DNA of 58,178 nt from Candidatus Thorarchaeota archaeon (GCA_963726195.1 CAVSBO010000011.1:1-58178); one strand, 5' to 3'; shown: positions 5,476 to 53,229, numbered from the stretch's first letter. Notes: generated by a model not told the origin, from the letters alone. Numbers and translations: made by a program.

Positions 5476-5661
5476 GACACGGAAGTCTTTCGGCTTTTGT
5501 TCAGTCCCGGCAGAAGTCTCTTGGTGTTTGCAGCGGCTTCGTTGATCACTTATGATTCGGACTCTCTGTCAAGTCGGCAAACAACAACGAGGTTTCTTCA
5601 TTCCACAACCGTTATACTAAGATGGACTTGACCTGACAGGTCCCAGAGTGGAGCCGTGCAG

Positions 5662-6843
5662 ATGTTCGAAGACAAAGGAATGGCAACATCGGAAGTGACT
5701 CATCTGCTCGAGTCATTGCTGGCAGATGATGTGAGCTATGCAAGTGGGCGTCCAGTCGCTTCGATGTCCACAGAGCCGCATAGCTTGGGTGTCCAAGTGT
5801 TCGCAAGAGCAATGGAGAAGAACGCAGGCCGGTTCCATACCTTTGCCGGCTCAGCAAAGGTGGAGCGCGAAGTCATAGAGATGGTAGCGGATCTGCTACA
5901 TCTTGCTGAACCTCTTGGCACGACAACTACCGGAGGAACCGAATCCAACATCCTAGCCATGCTCTCATATCGTGAAGCCGCGAAAAGGAAAAGCGGCACA
6001 CCACAAATCGTTGCCCCTGAAACCGTTCACGCCTCCGTGGACAAGGCCGCTTGGATTCTGGGAATGAAACTGGTCAAGACCAAGGTCGATCACCAGTTCA
6101 AGGCTGTTCCTGACGCAATCGAACGTGCAATCGGTCCAAACACAGTGGGCATCTTTACCACCGCGGGCACAACGTACTTGGGTCAGGTCGACCCAATCGA
6201 GGAAATCGGCGAGATAGCGGCCAATCATAAGATTCCTCTCCACGTGGATGCCGCATTCGGCGGATTCGTGATACCCTTTCTTGGTGATCTCGGGATTGGA
6301 AAGTACGCCTTCGACTTTCAGGTTGACGGAGTCACAAGTGTAAGTACAGACCCGCACAAGATGGGGCTGGGGCCAATACCTTGTGGTTGCCTTCTGTTCA
6401 GGTCAGAACGTCACTTGCAGGCGATAACCAGAAAGGTTCCCTACCTGAGAGGCGCAAGTGCGTCACAGACGACACTGCTTGGCACAAGACCTGCGGGATC
6501 GATATTGGGAACTTGGGCTGTGATGAAGCACCTAGGAAGAAGCGGATACAGGTCAATCGTCCAAGAATGCATGAAACGAACGATGATGATTAAGGAACGT
6601 GTCGAATCCAGCTCAACACTGGGCCTTGCGATTCAACCCGTGATGAACATCATAGGAATAAACACTAAAGAAGTTCCCATCGAGCTAGTGGCGCAGAAGA
6701 TGGAAGACCGAGGATGGCGAATGGATTTGTCACCCTTGCCTCCAACGATGAGAATCGTCGTGATGCCTCACATGACGGACGGAACAGTGAATGCGCTGCT
6801 CAACGACCTTGAAGAGATCGCAAGCACAGTACCGCCGGACTAG
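5662..6843 (+). CDS. mfnA: PLP-dependent tyrosine/L-aspartate decarboxylase MfnA
   Basis: GGTESN, HVDAAFGGF, DPHKMG (PLP lysine) and LLGTRP motifs. Confidence 0.92.
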   Translation: MFEDKGMATSEVTHLLESLLADDVSYASGRPVASMSTEPHSLGVQVFARAMEKNAGRFHTFAGSAKVEREVIEMVADLLHLAEPLGTTTTGGTESNILAMLSYREAAKRKSGTPQIVAPETVHASVDKAAWILGMKLVKTKVDHQFKAVPDAIERAIGPNTVGIFTTAGTTYLGQVDPIEEIGEIAANHKIPLHVDAAFGGFVIPFLGDLGIGKYAFDFQVDGVTSVSTDPHKMGLGPIPCGCLLFRSERHLQAITRKVPYLRGASASQTTLLGTRPAGSILGTWAVMKHLGRSGYRSIVQECMKRTMMIKERVESSSTLGLAIQPVMNIIGINTKEVPIELVAQKMEDRGWRMDLSPLPPTMRIVVMPHMTDGTVNALLNDLEEIASTVPPD

Positions 6844-9260: not shown

Positions 9261-10481
9261 CTATGTCACCGCTGCAAGTCTCTCGAGAGAGTCTGTCTCC
9301 ATCCCGCTGACCTTCACTAGTAGATTCTGAACGGGCTTGACAAACGTGAGGAATTCGCATACTTCCGACCGTGCATCCTTCAGCAGTTCAGGAACCTTCT
9401 CTACGAGACGTCTTACGTCGTCCAAGGCGCTCAGACCTTTCGTTTCTAACTCATGGTTTGTGGACCATTGTATCTCTCGTAGCTTTCGCAGTGAAGGGAG
9501 ACTGTCGGGAAGCAGTCCGCTAGCAATCTCGCTCCATATATCGGATATCTCGTTGAACTCTTCTGAGGCATTGGTCAGTGTGCTACTGTCCATGAGATCG
9601 CCCGCCTCTCTCAGGAAGTCTGCGTATATGCGTCTGAAGATCGCGCCTCCCGAACCTCCGGTCTCAATGTATATGTAATGCATCATGAGAGCGTGGGCGA
9701 GGTTCTCAGGGTCGGGAATCAACTTCGGATACTTCGGGAGTTCCTTGCTCCATCTGACAATCCCTTTGACTCCCGCGTTCGATATGGGTGGATTGAGAAG
9801 AGCGTCTATGTTCCCTCTAATTGCCCCAGGAATGATTGTTTGCAGTGGTGTCAATTCCTCAGGAAAGCTGAACCTTACCATCTGGTTCATTGCGGGAAAC
9901 GGCTGGAATTCGGAAGCGCGTGCCTTTTGCAGTTTCCTGAGAGACATTGTCGCAGTTCCATCGAATCTATCGGAAATGTAGGCCAAGTCCTTCGGCTCAT
10001 CGATTCCGTATACGAGGACATTGTGTTCACCAAAGTGATCGTTCTCGCCAGTGAGCAAATGATCTAGGTAGGCCATGTCGACACAAACAAGAGCTGGCTG
10101 GTTCTGGTGCAGCGTTTCCTTCAGGAAGACGTGTGCCTTCTTGACACTTTTTGTGAGAATGACTTCGTAATCACCTCCAAGTCGCTGCGTAGCCTTGCCC
10201 AATATACCTGGGAACCGGCGGCAGTCAGCTCTATTCATTCCTCCAATAACCGGATACGGCATCAGTTTCATGAACCAATAGATGAAACCCAGACCTGATG
10301 ATATTCCCACAAGCATAGGTTCGCTGATTTCATAGCCCATATGCCGCATCAACCGGACCATCGCGCTAGTCTGACAATTCCTACCGCCTCCGAAATGCTG
10401 AAAGTCCAGTATTACTCTCTCATTGCCGATTCCATCTGGCTTGAATTGGCTCTCGCTGTTTCGCACAGTCGTGGGACTCAT
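9261..10481 (-). CDS. BtrH N-terminal domain / DUF4872 protein (papain-like Cys peptidase fold)
   Basis: NCQTS, ISEPMLVGISSGLGFIY, VDMAYL, HFGEHNVLVYG, ETGGSGGAIFRRIYADFL. Start uncertain (ORF open to 10547). Confidence 0.75.
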   Translation of the reverse strand: MSPTTVRNSESQFKPDGIGNERVILDFQHFGGGRNCQTSAMVRLMRHMGYEISEPMLVGISSGLGFIYWFMKLMPYPVIGGMNRADCRRFPGILGKATQRLGGDYEVILTKSVKKAHVFLKETLHQNQPALVCVDMAYLDHLLTGENDHFGEHNVLVYGIDEPKDLAYISDRFDGTATMSLRKLQKARASEFQPFPAMNQMVRFSFPEELTPLQTIIPGAIRGNIDALLNPPISNAGVKGIVRWSKELPKYPKLIPDPENLAHALMMHYIYIETGGSGGAIFRRIYADFLREAGDLMDSSTLTNASEEFNEISDIWSEIASGLLPDSLPSLRKLREIQWSTNHELETKGLSALDDVRRLVEKVPELLKDARSEVCEFLTFVKPVQNLLVKVSGMETDSLERLAAVT

Positions 10482-10638
10482 AACAACCACACCGGTTTGT
10501 ATTCTACGACTGGTTGGCGCATCCTTCACGTAATGCGGGCAAGTCACTTATCGCTCATGGTTCAACAGCGGCCTTAAGCATTTCACGGTCCGGTTCTCCC
10601 GCGATTGATAGCCCGAGAAAGGGACGCCCGCGACTCTG

Positions 10639-11292
10639 CTATGTGAACAGCTTGGTTGTCCTCAGGAAGTCCATTGTCGCACACTCTGTCTGTGTTTTCC
10701 AAAGAGCCAGAAGATCGTCAGAGGTATCGATGTCGAGTTCCAGATCAGCCGATTTGAAGTGCACAAATTCGACACCGTTCCTGCCTGCCTCGGCCATGTG
10801 CACGCTAAAACTGGCCGGACCGAAGTGTGCTCTTATCGAATCAGGAGGCCGCCTGAGTAGTGCGTTCGTGCCTTGGTCACGAGACTGAACTGCGACAACA
10901 CATGGGCCATTGTGGTTCTGAGACTTAGAAACCATGGAGTCAATCGTCGAGGATTTCACAAGAGGGACATCTACAGGTATCACAAGCAGTGCGGTTCCTG
11001 GTTTCGTCTTACTGGACCTCTGCGTAATGGCATCGATAGCATCATTGAGTGAGCCACCAAGAGGATCGTTCAGAATGTGTATGTTAGGAAACTCAATCAG
11101 CCGTGCCAAGTTTCTGTCAGGCGTGATGACACTTATGGACTCAATCATTCGCGCCCGACTCAATGCCCCAAGCACATCGCTTAGCATCGCTTCTACAAGA
11201 CCAATGCGTTCTTTCGGTCCCAACAAGGCGGACAACCTGCTCTTGGCCAATGAGAGATTCTTCACAGGTACAACGACGTCTGCAGTCTGCAT
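10639..11292 (-). CDS. cofC: 2-phospho-L-lactate/PEP guanylyltransferase CofC
   Basis: VPVKNLSLAKSRLS, DVPLV, GTNAL, FGPASFSVH and DIDTSDDL motifs. Confidence 0.93.
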   Translation of the reverse strand: MQTADVVVPVKNLSLAKSRLSALLGPKERIGLVEAMLSDVLGALSRARMIESISVITPDRNLARLIEFPNIHILNDPLGGSLNDAIDAITQRSSKTKPGTALLVIPVDVPLVKSSTIDSMVSKSQNHNGPCVVAVQSRDQGTNALLRRPPDSIRAHFGPASFSVHMAEAGRNGVEFVHFKSADLELDIDTSDDLLALWKTQTECATMDFLRTTKLFT

Positions 11293-11294
11293 GA

Positions 11295-12239
11295 CTAACT
11301 CCTGCCAGCACCTGAAGAGATGACCTTGGAGGCGAGATCGACGCGGTCTCTCATCGTGTTCATGATAGTATTAGTAACTGTTGTACGTAATCCCATTGAC
11401 TGAACCTGCTTCTCAATCGCAGAATCCTGTACATCCATGACAAGATGGGTAACTAGGTTGTGATAGTATTTGGCGATCCCTGCCGGACTCACTTCGAAAC
11501 CCATTCCTTTCATGAACTTGTCTGCAGGTCCCTTGAGGGGTCTTCCCCCAACGATTGGACTGACTGCAACTCTCGGACACTTTGCCTCCTGAAGAGCCCT
11601 CCGAATTGCCCTGATGGACAGGATCGGACCGATTGAAGCCACCGGGTTGCTTGGACATATTACTATTAGGTCAGAGCTAGTCAGTGCTTTGACAACTTCT
11701 CCGGGGGGCCGGGCCTTGTCCGAACCCCGATAGACAACATCTTGCACCTGATCTGCCGAGCCCCTCTTGACAAAATACTCCTCGAAATGGATGACTGACC
11801 CATCTTGAATCTTCACGAGGGTCTCGACTTTGTCATCAGTCATCGGGAGTAGGTTGATCCCTTCAATTCCCAAGAGCATGCACAGCTTCTTCGTGACTTC
11901 GGAGAGAGTCAGACTGCTTCTCAAGAACTGTGTTCGGAGAATGTGTGTAGCCAAGTCTCTGTCGCCAACGTTAAACCATCTATCTTGGCTGTATAATCTG
12001 TTCAGTGAATCCAAGCACGTGAAAGTATCATCCTTGATTCCCCAGCCCTTTTCGGTATCGACTAGTCCAGCAAGTGTATACATCAAGATATCAAGGTCGG
12101 GAGATATGTGAAGACCAAAGAGCTCGATGTCGTCTCCGGTATTCCCGATGACTGTCAGTTCACCATGGTCTAGCACTTGCGATAGACCCGACACAAGTTT
12201 GGCTCCTCCGACGCCACCGCTTAGAGCTGTCACCTTCAT
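11295..12239 (-). CDS. cofD: 2-phospho-L-lactate transferase CofD
   Basis: LSGGVGGAK, NTGDD, ISPDLD, GDRDLATH, HFEEY and PSNP motifs. Confidence 0.96.
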   Translation of the reverse strand: MKVTALSGGVGGAKLVSGLSQVLDHGELTVIGNTGDDIELFGLHISPDLDILMYTLAGLVDTEKGWGIKDDTFTCLDSLNRLYSQDRWFNVGDRDLATHILRTQFLRSSLTLSEVTKKLCMLLGIEGINLLPMTDDKVETLVKIQDGSVIHFEEYFVKRGSADQVQDVVYRGSDKARPPGEVVKALTSSDLIVICPSNPVASIGPILSIRAIRRALQEAKCPRVAVSPIVGGRPLKGPADKFMKGMGFEVSPAGIAKYYHNLVTHLVMDVQDSAIEKQVQSMGLRTTVTNTIMNTMRDRVDLASKVISSGAGRS

Positions 12240-12285
12240 AGTTCGAGAGGCCTGTTGGCAGGCTGGCTCTATCAGAATAAAGACC

Positions 12286-12897
12286 TTACACTAGGACCAC
12301 CACGTCATCTAACTTGAGCCGTTCAGGGGTGCTGGGATTCTCCCCCGGATGGCCAATGAGTACAAACGCCTGAGGATCATATCCTAAGGGTAGATTCAAG
12401 GCATTCTGAACCAATGACTTGCAGAAAAGAGGTGCGCACATCCAGCTGCCGCCTAGCCCTCGTGCATGGGCTGCCAAGAGAAGATTCTCAATTGCTGCAG
12501 CGGCACTTTGAATCGCCATCGTATACTCAGCGGATTTCCTCTCGTCGTCAGGGTACTCATGCATGTTTTCCATGGTCAGGCAAACGAGAACAAGCACAGG
12601 CGCCTTCAAGAGACGGGACTCCGACTCCTTGGCCCTAGATGCAATCTCTGCCTCGGCCGCCCCATCTTTTCTCAAATCAGACTGGAAGGCACTTGACATG
12701 GCTTCCACCAGAGTTCTCCTAGTTGATGTGCTTCTCAGAACTACAAAGCGAGTGGGCTGGGAGTTGTGCGCCGAGGGCGCAAGCGTGGCGGCCTCTAGAA
12801 TCTCGCGCAGCACCTTGTCGTCTACTTCAGCCTTAACGAACTTCCTGATTGTTCTTCTGTCCCTTATAGCATCAATGACATCGACATGTCTTCGCAC
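12286..12897 (-). CDS. FMN nitroreductase, FbiB C-terminal/FbiE-like (putative dehydro-F420 reductase)
   Basis: RRTIRKF and APSAHNSQP nitroreductase motifs, plus DLRKDG..EI..R and HEYPD..R..AEYTM segments resembling the FbiB C-terminal domain. Confidence 0.75.
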   Translation of the reverse strand: MRRHVDVIDAIRDRRTIRKFVKAEVDDKVLREILEAATLAPSAHNSQPTRFVVLRSTSTRRTLVEAMSSAFQSDLRKDGAAEAEIASRAKESESRLLKAPVLVLVCLTMENMHEYPDDERKSAEYTMAIQSAAAAIENLLLAAHARGLGGSWMCAPLFCKSLVQNALNLPLGYDPQAFVLIGHPGENPSTPERLKLDDVVVLV

Positions 12898-13032
12898 GCA
12901 GAATCACTCCTTATCCAGAGAATGCTCTCCACAACTTGTACACGCACAGGATGGCTACATGCACAACAAGTTAATAGCATGTTTGGGCCGACTTGCCTCA
13001 AACCCGGTCGACGGACAGACGGAGGAAATCTG

Positions 13033-15366: not shown

Positions 15367-16365
15367 CTATCGTTCAAAACTGCGGGGCGTCAGCACCGGG
15401 CCCTTTGAGAAATCGAACAGAACTTGCTCGTCCGGCCCTCGCTTCAGACGCAGCCCGCTGGAATCATCAACCTTACCGATTGCTTCCGAGGTCATACCAT
15501 GCTCGGCGGCAATACGAGCAACCTTTGGGGCGTTCTCGGGAGATGTCGTGAGAAGAAAGCCCAAGGAAATATACATCCTGATCCAATCCTCAAACTCGAC
15601 CAAAGATGGGCAGGCCTGTTCCGCCGCTTTGAGATCGATTGTCCCGCCCTTTCCGGAGTATTCCAGTAGCATGCCAGCAGTGCCAATGAGCCCCGCCACC
15701 GAAACGTCCTTTGAAGCATTTACAATGTGCTGTCGAGCCAGCTCATTCATTGTCGATAGCCTTTGCAGAACAACCTCAGATTCGCGCTCGACGACTGAGT
15801 CCCACCCCAAGCGGTAGCTGGAACCGCGTCTGCCAGTCTTGTCAAACACAAGAACGATCACGTCGCCGGGCTTAGCCCCACCTGCCGACAGGACATCGCG
15901 CTTCCTTGACCTGCCCGTCGCAGACCCGACCACGTATGTGAACTTAGAACGCGGATTAGTGTGACCACGGACGATGGGTATTCTGAACTTCTGCGAACCC
16001 TCGATTAGGCCTTGGAGTAGCAGTTCTCCCACTTGAGGGTCAGAATATGAAATCGCAACCGAGATTGTTGTGGGAATTCCTCCAGCCGCATAGATATCCA
16101 TAGCGTTGGCCAGAACTACGTTGAAGCCTGCGGCACGAGGATGGTTCAGACAGAGCTCTTCGACTATCGAATCGGTAGTTAAGAGCACAACTTCGTCTTT
16201 CTCCACTGCAATAACGGCACAGTCTTCTCCTAGCGAGTGCGGAAGATCCCCGTTGTATGACTCTTCTCTAATCCTCGTGATAATCTTGGGAAGCACATAT
16301 TTCCGAGAGATACCATCGAAGTTGTGCAGAATGCGGACAATCTCATCGAGGGGTTTCAAAGCCAA
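15367..16365 (-). CDS. AIR synthase (PurM-like)-related protein, methanogenesis marker 2/sll0787-like
   Basis: GEDCAVI, ANAMDIYAAGG, GHT, GAKPGD and KDVSVAG motifs. Confidence 0.8.
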   Translation of the reverse strand: MALKPLDEIVRILHNFDGISRKYVLPKIITRIREESYNGDLPHSLGEDCAVIAVEKDEVVLLTTDSIVEELCLNHPRAAGFNVVLANAMDIYAAGGIPTTISVAISYSDPQVGELLLQGLIEGSQKFRIPIVRGHTNPRSKFTYVVGSATGRSRKRDVLSAGGAKPGDVIVLVFDKTGRRGSSYRLGWDSVVERESEVVLQRLSTMNELARQHIVNASKDVSVAGLIGTAGMLLEYSGKGGTIDLKAAEQACPSLVEFEDWIRMYISLGFLLTTSPENAPKVARIAAEHGMTSEAIGKVDDSSGLRLKRGPDEQVLFDFSKGPVLTPRSFER

Positions 16366-51730: not shown

Positions 51731-53229
51731 TTGCCATCTACATTTCTAAAGGCCCTATCTCCGATGGTCCGAATCATGCCCGAGGTCAAGGCGCCTGATC
51801 GCAAGGTCTCTTTCCGAGAGAAAGCGATTTGGACCATTCTGGTGCTCGTCGTATTCTTAGTAATGTCACACATGCCCCTCTACGGAGTGAACCAGTCCAC
51901 TGTCACAGACTACCTGTGGGCTATGCGTGTGATACTCGCAAGTACGAGAGGCACATTGATGGAGCTTGGCATAGGACCGATAGTAACTGCAGGCCTAGTA
52001 ATGCAGCTCCTCTCGGGTTCTAAGATAATCAATGTGGATTTCAGCGACCCTGACGACCGAGCTTTGTTCACCGGCGGTCAGAAAGTACTAGCCCTGCTGA
52101 TGACAGGATTCCAAGCAGCCGCCTACATAGTTGGAAACGCTTACGGCAGCCTGACTGCCGAGCAGGCTGTGCTCGTGTTCCTGCAGCTCTTCGCGGGCAG
52201 GCGTAGTCGTCATTATGATGGATGAGCTGAATTCAGAAGGGTTGGGGCCTTGGTTCGGGAGTCTCACTGTTCATCATGACCAACGTGGCTGGTCAAGTCA
52301 TATTCAACATGTTCGATGTCACCCAGTACGAGACAAATGTCGCGCCGCTAGGCTATCCTAGAGCAGGAACGGGATTGCCCAAGGGCATCATCGCAGCCGT
52401 TTTGGCAAACATCCTCAGATGGTTTGGCATTGGTACCGACGCCGGCCCCTCTGTCGATGCTTCTTGGTTAATCGTAAGAGATGGAATCAACCCGAGTTTG
52501 CTGTCGCTAGCTGTAACGCTTGTGATTTTCTTCATCGTTCTTTACATGGAATCCGTGCGAGTTGAAATACCCCTCCAGTATGCGAAGTACAGAGGTATGA
52601 GAGCCAAGTACCCGATTAAGCTGCTCTACACATCCAACATACCTGTGATTCTTGCACAGGCCCTCTTTGCCAATATCATATTCTTTGCCCAGATCATCTA
52701 CAACGCATTTCCCACGAATGTTTTCCTGAATTGGCTGGGCGTATTCCAGAAGGATCCTGCCAGCGGTAGACTAATAGCAATTTCAGGTTTGGCACGATAT
52801 GTGACACCGCCTCAAGGTATTTTCGCTGTTGCGCAACAGTGGGATGGCGCGCCCCATGTCATCATCTATAGTGCAATCATGGTGTTGCTTTGTTGGGGAT
52901 TCAGCAGGATATGGATTGATATCAGCGGCATAGCTCCTCGTGACGTGTCAAGGCAATTGCTGGACTCTGGATACATCGTACCTGGCTTCAGAAGAAGCGA
53001 GAAGGTCCTGGAGAGGTTACTTGACCGATACATTCCAGTCGTGGCCGGACTTGGCGGTGTAATCATAGGCGTCATAGCAGCGGGTGCGGATGTCATGGGC
53101 GCACTCGCCAGCGGTACAGGCATACTGCTGATGGTGTCTATCATCAAGCAGTACTACGAGCAGATAGCCAAGGAACAGCTGAGACAAATGGGCGGCGAAG
53201 GAATTGAAGGTTTACTCGGAATCCTGTAA
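51731..53229 (+). CDS. secY: Preprotein translocase SecY (extra bases ~52200 and ~52230)
   Basis: LMELGIGPIVTAG, KGWGLGSGVSLFI, YPIKLLYTSNIP and GTGILL motifs. Confidence 0.96.

Follow-up and report, generated by a model that had tools for sequence, protein, structure and literature searches.

The closest described counterpart of the locus considered here is FbiE of Thermomicrobium roseum, which reduces dehydro-F420 as a stand-alone protein (Braga et al. 2020, as named in PMC8498797). In the related FbiB of Mtb, Bashiri et al. placed docked dehydro-F420 in a pocket formed by P289, R337 and M372. Archaeal relatives are also on record: a lokiarchaeial fusion of CofE and nitroreductase was reported by Bashiri et al. 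2019 (PMC6450877), and Grinter and Greening 2021 (PMC8498797) describe independent FbiE homologs in predicted archaeal F420 producers, together with Lokiarchaeota that carry a fused FbiB. The novelty implied in the first-pass annotation of this DNA is thus unsupported, and in the literature we found no experimental test of an archaeal FbiE. A search confined to the surroundings of cofE, which is unlinked in the thorarchaeon, led Bashiri et al. to miss the stand-alone archaeal genes. Concerning the partner enzymes, it is CofD, not CofC, that selects between phosphoenolpyruvate (PEP) and 2-phospholactate (2-PL) intermediates, and CofC assays alone cannot separate the two; a Ser or Thr at the S162 position of CofC is diagnostic of 3-PG (PMC8764529).

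The window, i.e., the whole stretch of 58,178 nucleotides that was analysed, originates from Candidatus Thorarchaeota, and the ribosomal proteins S8 and S5 encoded in it fall into 90% clusters together with proteins from this taxon. The host genome assembly comprises 2.92 Mb and is 88.9% complete. Three minus-strand open reading frames (Table 1) follow each other in the order nitroreductase–cofD–cofC, separated by 46 and 2 bp, as had been claimed from the sequence at first reading. The nitroreductase is a free-standing frame of 203 residues inside an open frame of 205 codons. The motifs singled out in the first-pass annotation are all present (SDLRKDG at residue 73, EIASR at 84, HEYPD at 113, and AEYTM at 123), and the likeness to FbiB-C that was read into them holds in the alignment, where they face SDLTSDG, HSYPD and AEHTM of Mtb FbiB-C (PDB code 4XOM). 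In GC and GC3 content, compared as a check for recent foreign origin, the cassette matches the host genes, and the trees give no donor. A promoter and terminator scan based on bacterial consensus returned nothing above chance.

Table 1. Cassette genes and associated signal; positions are counted from the first nucleotide of the window.
Feature	Position	Strand	Remarks
FbiE-type nitroreductase, predicted dehydro-F420-0 reductase	12286..12897	-	203 aa, GTG start
cofD/fbiA phosphotransferase	11295..12239	-	314 aa, TIGR01819 above cut-off
cofC/fbiD guanylyltransferase	10639..11292	-	217 aa, TIGR03552 above cut-off
Shine-Dalgarno-like AGGAGTGA, putative	12903..12910, approximate	-	a few bases 5' of the nitroreductase GTG; read from the sequence

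Several other genes lie around the cassette. The strand that carries cofC also encodes, 91 bp downstream of it, a BtrH_N/DUF4872 protein (window positions 9261–10547), a neighbour that is not conserved in the relatives inspected. Genes for an MfnA tyrosine decarboxylase and a methanogenesis marker 2-like, AIR-synthase-related protein are found at 5656–6843 and 15367–16365, respectively; mfnA scores above the TIGR03812 cut-off and the marker 2-like protein below its own. Elsewhere in the window, at 51731–53229, secY is broken by two frameshifts that are at most about 50 bases apart. Because secY is essential, these frameshifts point to indel errors in the assembly, and where genes for LLM enzymes, FrhB, cofE paralogs and nitroreductases are split in other parts of the genome, they should accordingly not be taken for pseudogenes.

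Profile searches place the nitroreductase with FbiB-C. It matches PRK13294 with 162.6 bits, exclusively over model positions 256–447, which is the C-terminal part, and PF00881 with 123.8 bits. Against TIGR03553 (FbiB_CTERM) the score is 154.4 bits (BluB, 89), which is below the cut-off of 249.55, a value passed in none of the 301 Asgard and none of the 141 Bathyarchaeia genomes searched. The best sequence match in the PDB is 4XOM (E 1e-28), and the structure model (pLDDT 95) has FbiB-C as its top fold match (4XOM, 4XOO, and 4XOQ; TM 0.87–0.89, Z 26.1), with the next entry at Z 21.8. Arg14 and Arg18 correspond to the FMN-site arginines R260 and R264 of Mtb FbiB. The T. roseum protein TRD_RS12805, encoded in a cofD–cofC–DMT transporter–nitroreductase cluster, is 47% identical over 177 residues, and we infer that Braga et al. 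2020 assayed this protein as FbiE. In Mtb FbiB numbering, H290, D324, G325, Y360, D362, R365, E369, and M372 are common to the thorarchaeal protein, the T. roseum protein and actinobacterial FbiB-C. The 15 generic nitroreductases aligned conserve none of these eight signature residues, and H290, R365, E369, and M372 do not occur among the residues that those enzymes have in common. Two insertions that separate FbiE and FbiB-C from generic nitroreductases are likewise conserved. The docked pocket is kept in part: M372 is present, P289 is replaced by Ala43 and R337 by Glu91. All 29 archaeal copies have Ala at the P289 position, and the R337 position is variable, with Gly in T. roseum.

Two nitroreductase trees place the protein in a star-like FbiE/FbiB radiation with an unsupported backbone and long-branch generic enzymes inside, and provide no supported FbiE/FbiB clade; an AU test of FbiE/FbiB monophyly gives p = 0.175 and so does not reject it. 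With profile, signature residues, fold and linkage all pointing the same way, membership in the FbiB-C/FbiE group is supported, and the protein is probably a dehydro-F420-0 reductase of the FbiE type, as judged from sequence and model. Homologs on plasmids of Variovorax and Paraburkholderia (Burkholderiales), 41–43% identical, carry nearly all signature residues as well, and no F420 genes are found within 5–6 kb of either.

CofD scores 334.5 bits against TIGR01819 (cut-off 257.45), matches 3C3D and 6UVX in the PDB, and has the N-terminal loop GGVGGAK, which is the FbiA/T. roseum type. In a quick tree, the window CofD and all 27 CofDs linked to FbiE or FbiB, actinobacterial FbiA and T. roseum CofD included, form a clade with SH-aLRT 99. 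This clade excludes the GGTG-type CofDs of Methanobacterium, Natrinema and several Asgard families, the loop being GGTGTPK in Methanobacterium and haloarchaea. The placement of the window CofD speaks indirectly for EPPG and dehydro-F420-0 as intermediates, with the loop as a putative marker of specificity. A group of Bathyarchaeia CofDs has an intermediate loop, GG(T/S)GSAK, and no reductase in the flanks fetched; at one of these loci a gene for 292 residues, by eye similar to RimK/CofF-type ligases, is located between cofD and cofC. The CofDs closest to that of the window occur in two near-complete, single-contig Asgard genomes, where cofC is present and the upstream flank holds a gene for a tetraether lipid synthase; FbiE, MJ0144 and cofG gave no match in these two genomes.

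CofC scores 154.3 bits against TIGR03552 (cut-off 105), and in an alignment to 6BWG it keeps the equivalents of K17, D116, T148, G163, S166, D188, and D190, through which Mtb FbiD binds metal and PEP. The 3PG-F420 pathway, in which CofC is of the Mycetohabitans type, was considered and rejected, as the position of Ser162 in the 3-PG enzymes is occupied by Gly in the FGPAS motif. By these residues, CofC is of the PEP/2-PL type. Because the nitroreductase is of the FbiE type, CofD of the FbiA/T. roseum type, and CofC without the serine of the 3-PG enzymes, a PEP/dehydro-F420 route, as in mycobacteria, is likely in this thorarchaeon.

The arrangement of the three genes is not confined to the window. 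The 86 family genomes separate by TIGR03553 score: nine have a protein at 130–176 bits, and all remaining nitroreductases reach at most 58. In each of the nine, which cover 7 of the 16 genera, the FbiE-like gene is adjacent to cofD, and the pair is found in none of the other 77. The genes flanking the cassette vary among five relatives inspected. When the best 80 related loci from all prokaryotes are considered, most of them from Chloroflexota, plus Bathyarchaeia and Odinarchaeia, cofD is directly downstream of the nitroreductase in 52 and the order nitroreductase–cofD–cofC is present in 51. Repeated in eight further genomes of the family and at 51 of these best 80 loci, the arrangement is not a product of chance. 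On a wider scale, the FbiE domain is present in 98 of 301 Asgard genomes, stand-alone or fused to CofE (frames of about 470 residues). A cofD match accompanies it in 94 of the 98, and in the other four the gene is on a short contig or near a contig end. FbiE is also present in 32 of 141 Bathyarchaeia genomes, 30 of them with cofD, and was not found in 32 of the 62 Bathyarchaeia genomes that bear cofD. All these counts disregard kinship, and as related genomes are not independent, they show conservation and do not amount to a statistical test. The gene order thus recurs across Asgard archaea and Bathyarchaeia, where the first-pass annotation had proposed to look for it, and in Chloroflexota too. 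With the cassette this widespread among archaea, the label "bacterial-style" receives no support as a direction of transfer.

As stated in the first-pass annotation, cofE, cofG and cofH are absent from the window. A cofE gene above cut-off is located on another contig (C3) of the host genome, together with two weaker paralogs in the genome, and genes for Mer-like LLM enzymes (F420-type) and a protein with an FrhB domain are found elsewhere; npdG/Fno and Mtd were not found in the host genome. For cofG and cofH, the host genome gave no match anywhere, and tblastn with Asgard CofG and CofH sequences returned nothing meaningful. The family conforms to this pattern as far as it was searched: none of its 86 genomes, 23 of which are at least 90% complete, yielded a cofG match, nor did cofH turn up in any of the six checked, namely the host genome and five cassette-bearing relatives that are 91–99% complete. 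Four other Asgard families with stand-alone FbiE are devoid of cofG in all genomes searched. The first-pass conclusion that this archaeon makes F420 is accordingly unsupported if it means synthesis from scratch. In view of the negative searches for an Fo synthase, Fo is probably salvaged, and the cassette would most likely finish scavenged Fo. No Fo importer was identified next to the cassette in the window. In T. roseum a DMT transporter gene lies between cofC and the nitroreductase gene, and in one Thorarchaeia genome a BMP-type ABC transporter follows cofC; both are possible Fo importers.

LLM genes are present in 86 of 86 family genomes and the cassette only in nine, and cofE is above cut-off in both cassette-free Thorarchaeia genomes that were checked. 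The retention of cofE and LLM genes without cofD suggests uptake of F420-0 or F420, or another substrate for CofE. Thorarchaeia without cofD may therefore import F420-0 or F420, or use CofE and the LLM enzymes in another way.

In the proposed scheme, CofC would condense PEP with GTP to EPPG, and CofD, to judge from its clade, would transfer the enolpyruvyl-phosphate part of EPPG onto Fo to give dehydro-F420-0. The nitroreductase, with FMNH2, is then predicted to reduce the enol double bond and convert dehydro-F420-0 to F420-0, an assignment derived from its homology with FbiB-C and FbiE and from the strict linkage. The unlinked CofE would add the glutamate tail, the Fo would most likely be taken from the environment, and the F420 produced would serve the Mer-like LLM enzymes and the FrhB-domain protein. 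The identities of the genes, their order, linkage and distribution, and the fold are matters of observation; that they constitute an F420-finishing cassette which follows the PEP/dehydro-F420 scheme as a whole, with salvage of Fo, is in our judgement probable.

Other readings of the same genes were weighed against this scheme. The reductase could act a step before this, with PEP or EPPG as its substrate and 2-phospholactate or LPPG as its product; the end product would then be unchanged, but would not arise through dehydro-F420. The loss of the carboxylate-binding R337 and of P289 from the pocket of the docked Mtb model would be compatible with such a substrate, and 2-PL is preferred in vitro by most CofC enzymes. 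However, dehydro-F420 is the substrate of FbiB-C and T. roseum FbiE, the two relatives that have been characterised, the two insertions that distinguish the family from generic nitroreductases are conserved, and CofD groups with FbiA, which accepts EPPG; an earlier site of action is therefore unlikely. To much the same degree we doubt that the host is self-sufficient in F420 synthesis, its Fo synthase having either dropped out of the assembly or diverged beyond recognition. The assembly is only 88.9% complete, and in the Asgard family that has the fused FbiB form, cofG is present in 62 of 68 genomes. Yet the 86 family genomes in which no cofG was found include some that bear the cassette and are 96–99% complete, the tblastn search of the host genome was equally negative, and the four other Asgard families with stand-alone FbiE agree in having no cofG.

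A shade less probable again is an accessory role for the nitroreductase as a flavin reductase that supplies FMNH2, or that repairs oxidised or dehydro F420 obtained from other microbes, in place of an obligatory step. Many archaea have an FbiA-type CofD and no FbiE, the two Burkholderiales homologs reside outside an F420 context, and LLM genes occur in all Thorarchaeia genomes whereas the cassette is in a small minority. Against this, in archaea the gene is almost never found without cofD, Actinobacteria and one Asgard family have it as a fusion with CofE, and repair of dehydro-F420 would in any case be the same chemistry. That a generic nitroreductase has come to lie beside cofD by chance is highly improbable. 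The score below the curated FbiB-C cut-off and the unsupported tree backbone would permit it, but the co-occurrence with cofD (9/9 against 0/77 in the family), a gene order that Chloroflexota have in common with Asgard archaea and Bathyarchaeia, and signature residues that generic enzymes do not conserve all argue against it.

The archaeal loci in which cofD is not accompanied by FbiE are also informative. Directly after cofD, 13 of 20 such Asgard loci carry a gene for a Dus-like flavoprotein of the MJ0144 family (TIGR00736). This gene is present in 57 of the 301 Asgard genomes, all of which have cofD, usually adjacent, and none of which has FbiE. Of 14 control genomes, three have cofD; these three, and no others, also have a gene of the MJ0144 family, and all three lack FbiE. 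It is a neighbour of cofD in Natrinema, in Methanobacterium oryzae and in one Methanofastidiosia genome; the Methanolobus copy is not adjacent to cofD. The family is homologous to methanogenesis marker 9 proteins. Neither FbiE nor MJ0144 was found in 44 Asgard and 32 Bathyarchaeia genomes with cofD.

The mutual exclusion of FbiE and MJ0144 beside cofD provides a named candidate for the origin of the lactyl group in methanogen F420. On the basis of gene context, the MJ0144-family protein is a candidate for the enzyme of the reductive step in methanogens and haloarchaea, and the pattern supports such a step beside cofD. In the nomenclature of Bashiri et al., it is a candidate for "CofX", or else for the source of 2-PL. 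A general reading, which we offer tentatively and rate as slightly short of an even chance, is that side-chain synthesis of F420 in most archaea involves a flavin-dependent C=C reduction, performed either by FbiE or by an unrelated Dus-like TIM barrel of the MJ0144 family encoded beside cofD; the latter would be CofX or the 2-phospholactate source, and the cassette-bearing Thorarchaeia would be Fo-salvaging producers of F420. FbiE would here be paired with the FbiA-type CofD, and MJ0144 with the GGTG-type CofD of methanogens, haloarchaea and several Asgard lineages. It is also possible that the MJ0144-family protein is a tRNA-modification enzyme. Kasprzak 2012 counted an "archaeal Dus" subfamily among the tRNA enzymes and left F420 unmentioned, and we found no literature linking MJ0144/TIGR00736, Dus with cofD, or marker 9 to F420.

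If the scheme proposed for the cassette is true, this thorarchaeon offers a concrete archaeal case of the PEP/dehydro-F420 route that reviews have predicted. It would also suggest that the deazaflavin supply of Thorarchaeia depends on their neighbours, with about one in ten Thorarchaeia genomes finishing scavenged Fo and the others, in which cofE and LLM genes are kept, perhaps in need of F420-0 or F420. The comparison of FbiE with MJ0144 outweighs in importance the single gene from which it started.

The thorarchaeal locus was also compared with known systems. In the euryarchaeal 2-phospholactate route of M. jannaschii and M. mazei, CofC, CofD and the single-domain CofE are homologous, but the euryarchaeal CofD is of the GGTGTPK type and a flavoprotein of the MJ0144 family, often encoded beside cofD, takes the place of FbiE; no FbiE-like gene was found in three control euryarchaea. 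The lokiarchaeial fusion belongs to the same phylum and has the same domain directly upstream of cofD. It differs in that the domain is part of a frame of about 470 residues in genomes that mostly possess cofG (62/68), whereas in the thorarchaeon it stands alone, cofE is unlinked and cofG was not found. With Mtb FbiB-C (4XOM, 4XOO, 4XOQ; TIGR03553), the thorarchaeal protein shares the FMN-site arginines, H290 and M372. Unlike the Mtb domain, which is fused to CofE, it is unfused, about 31% identical in sequence, and has Ala, Phe and Glu in place of P289, W317, and R337. The cluster of T. roseum has the order cofD–cofC–DMT transporter–nitroreductase instead of fbiE–cofD–cofC, and T. roseum, an experimentally shown F420 producer, has Pro at P289, where the thorarchaeon, with no Fo synthase found in its genome, has Ala. 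T. roseum FbiE is nevertheless the nearest counterpart in the free-standing nitroreductase fold, the clustering with cofD and cofC, the signature residues and the clade to which CofD belongs.
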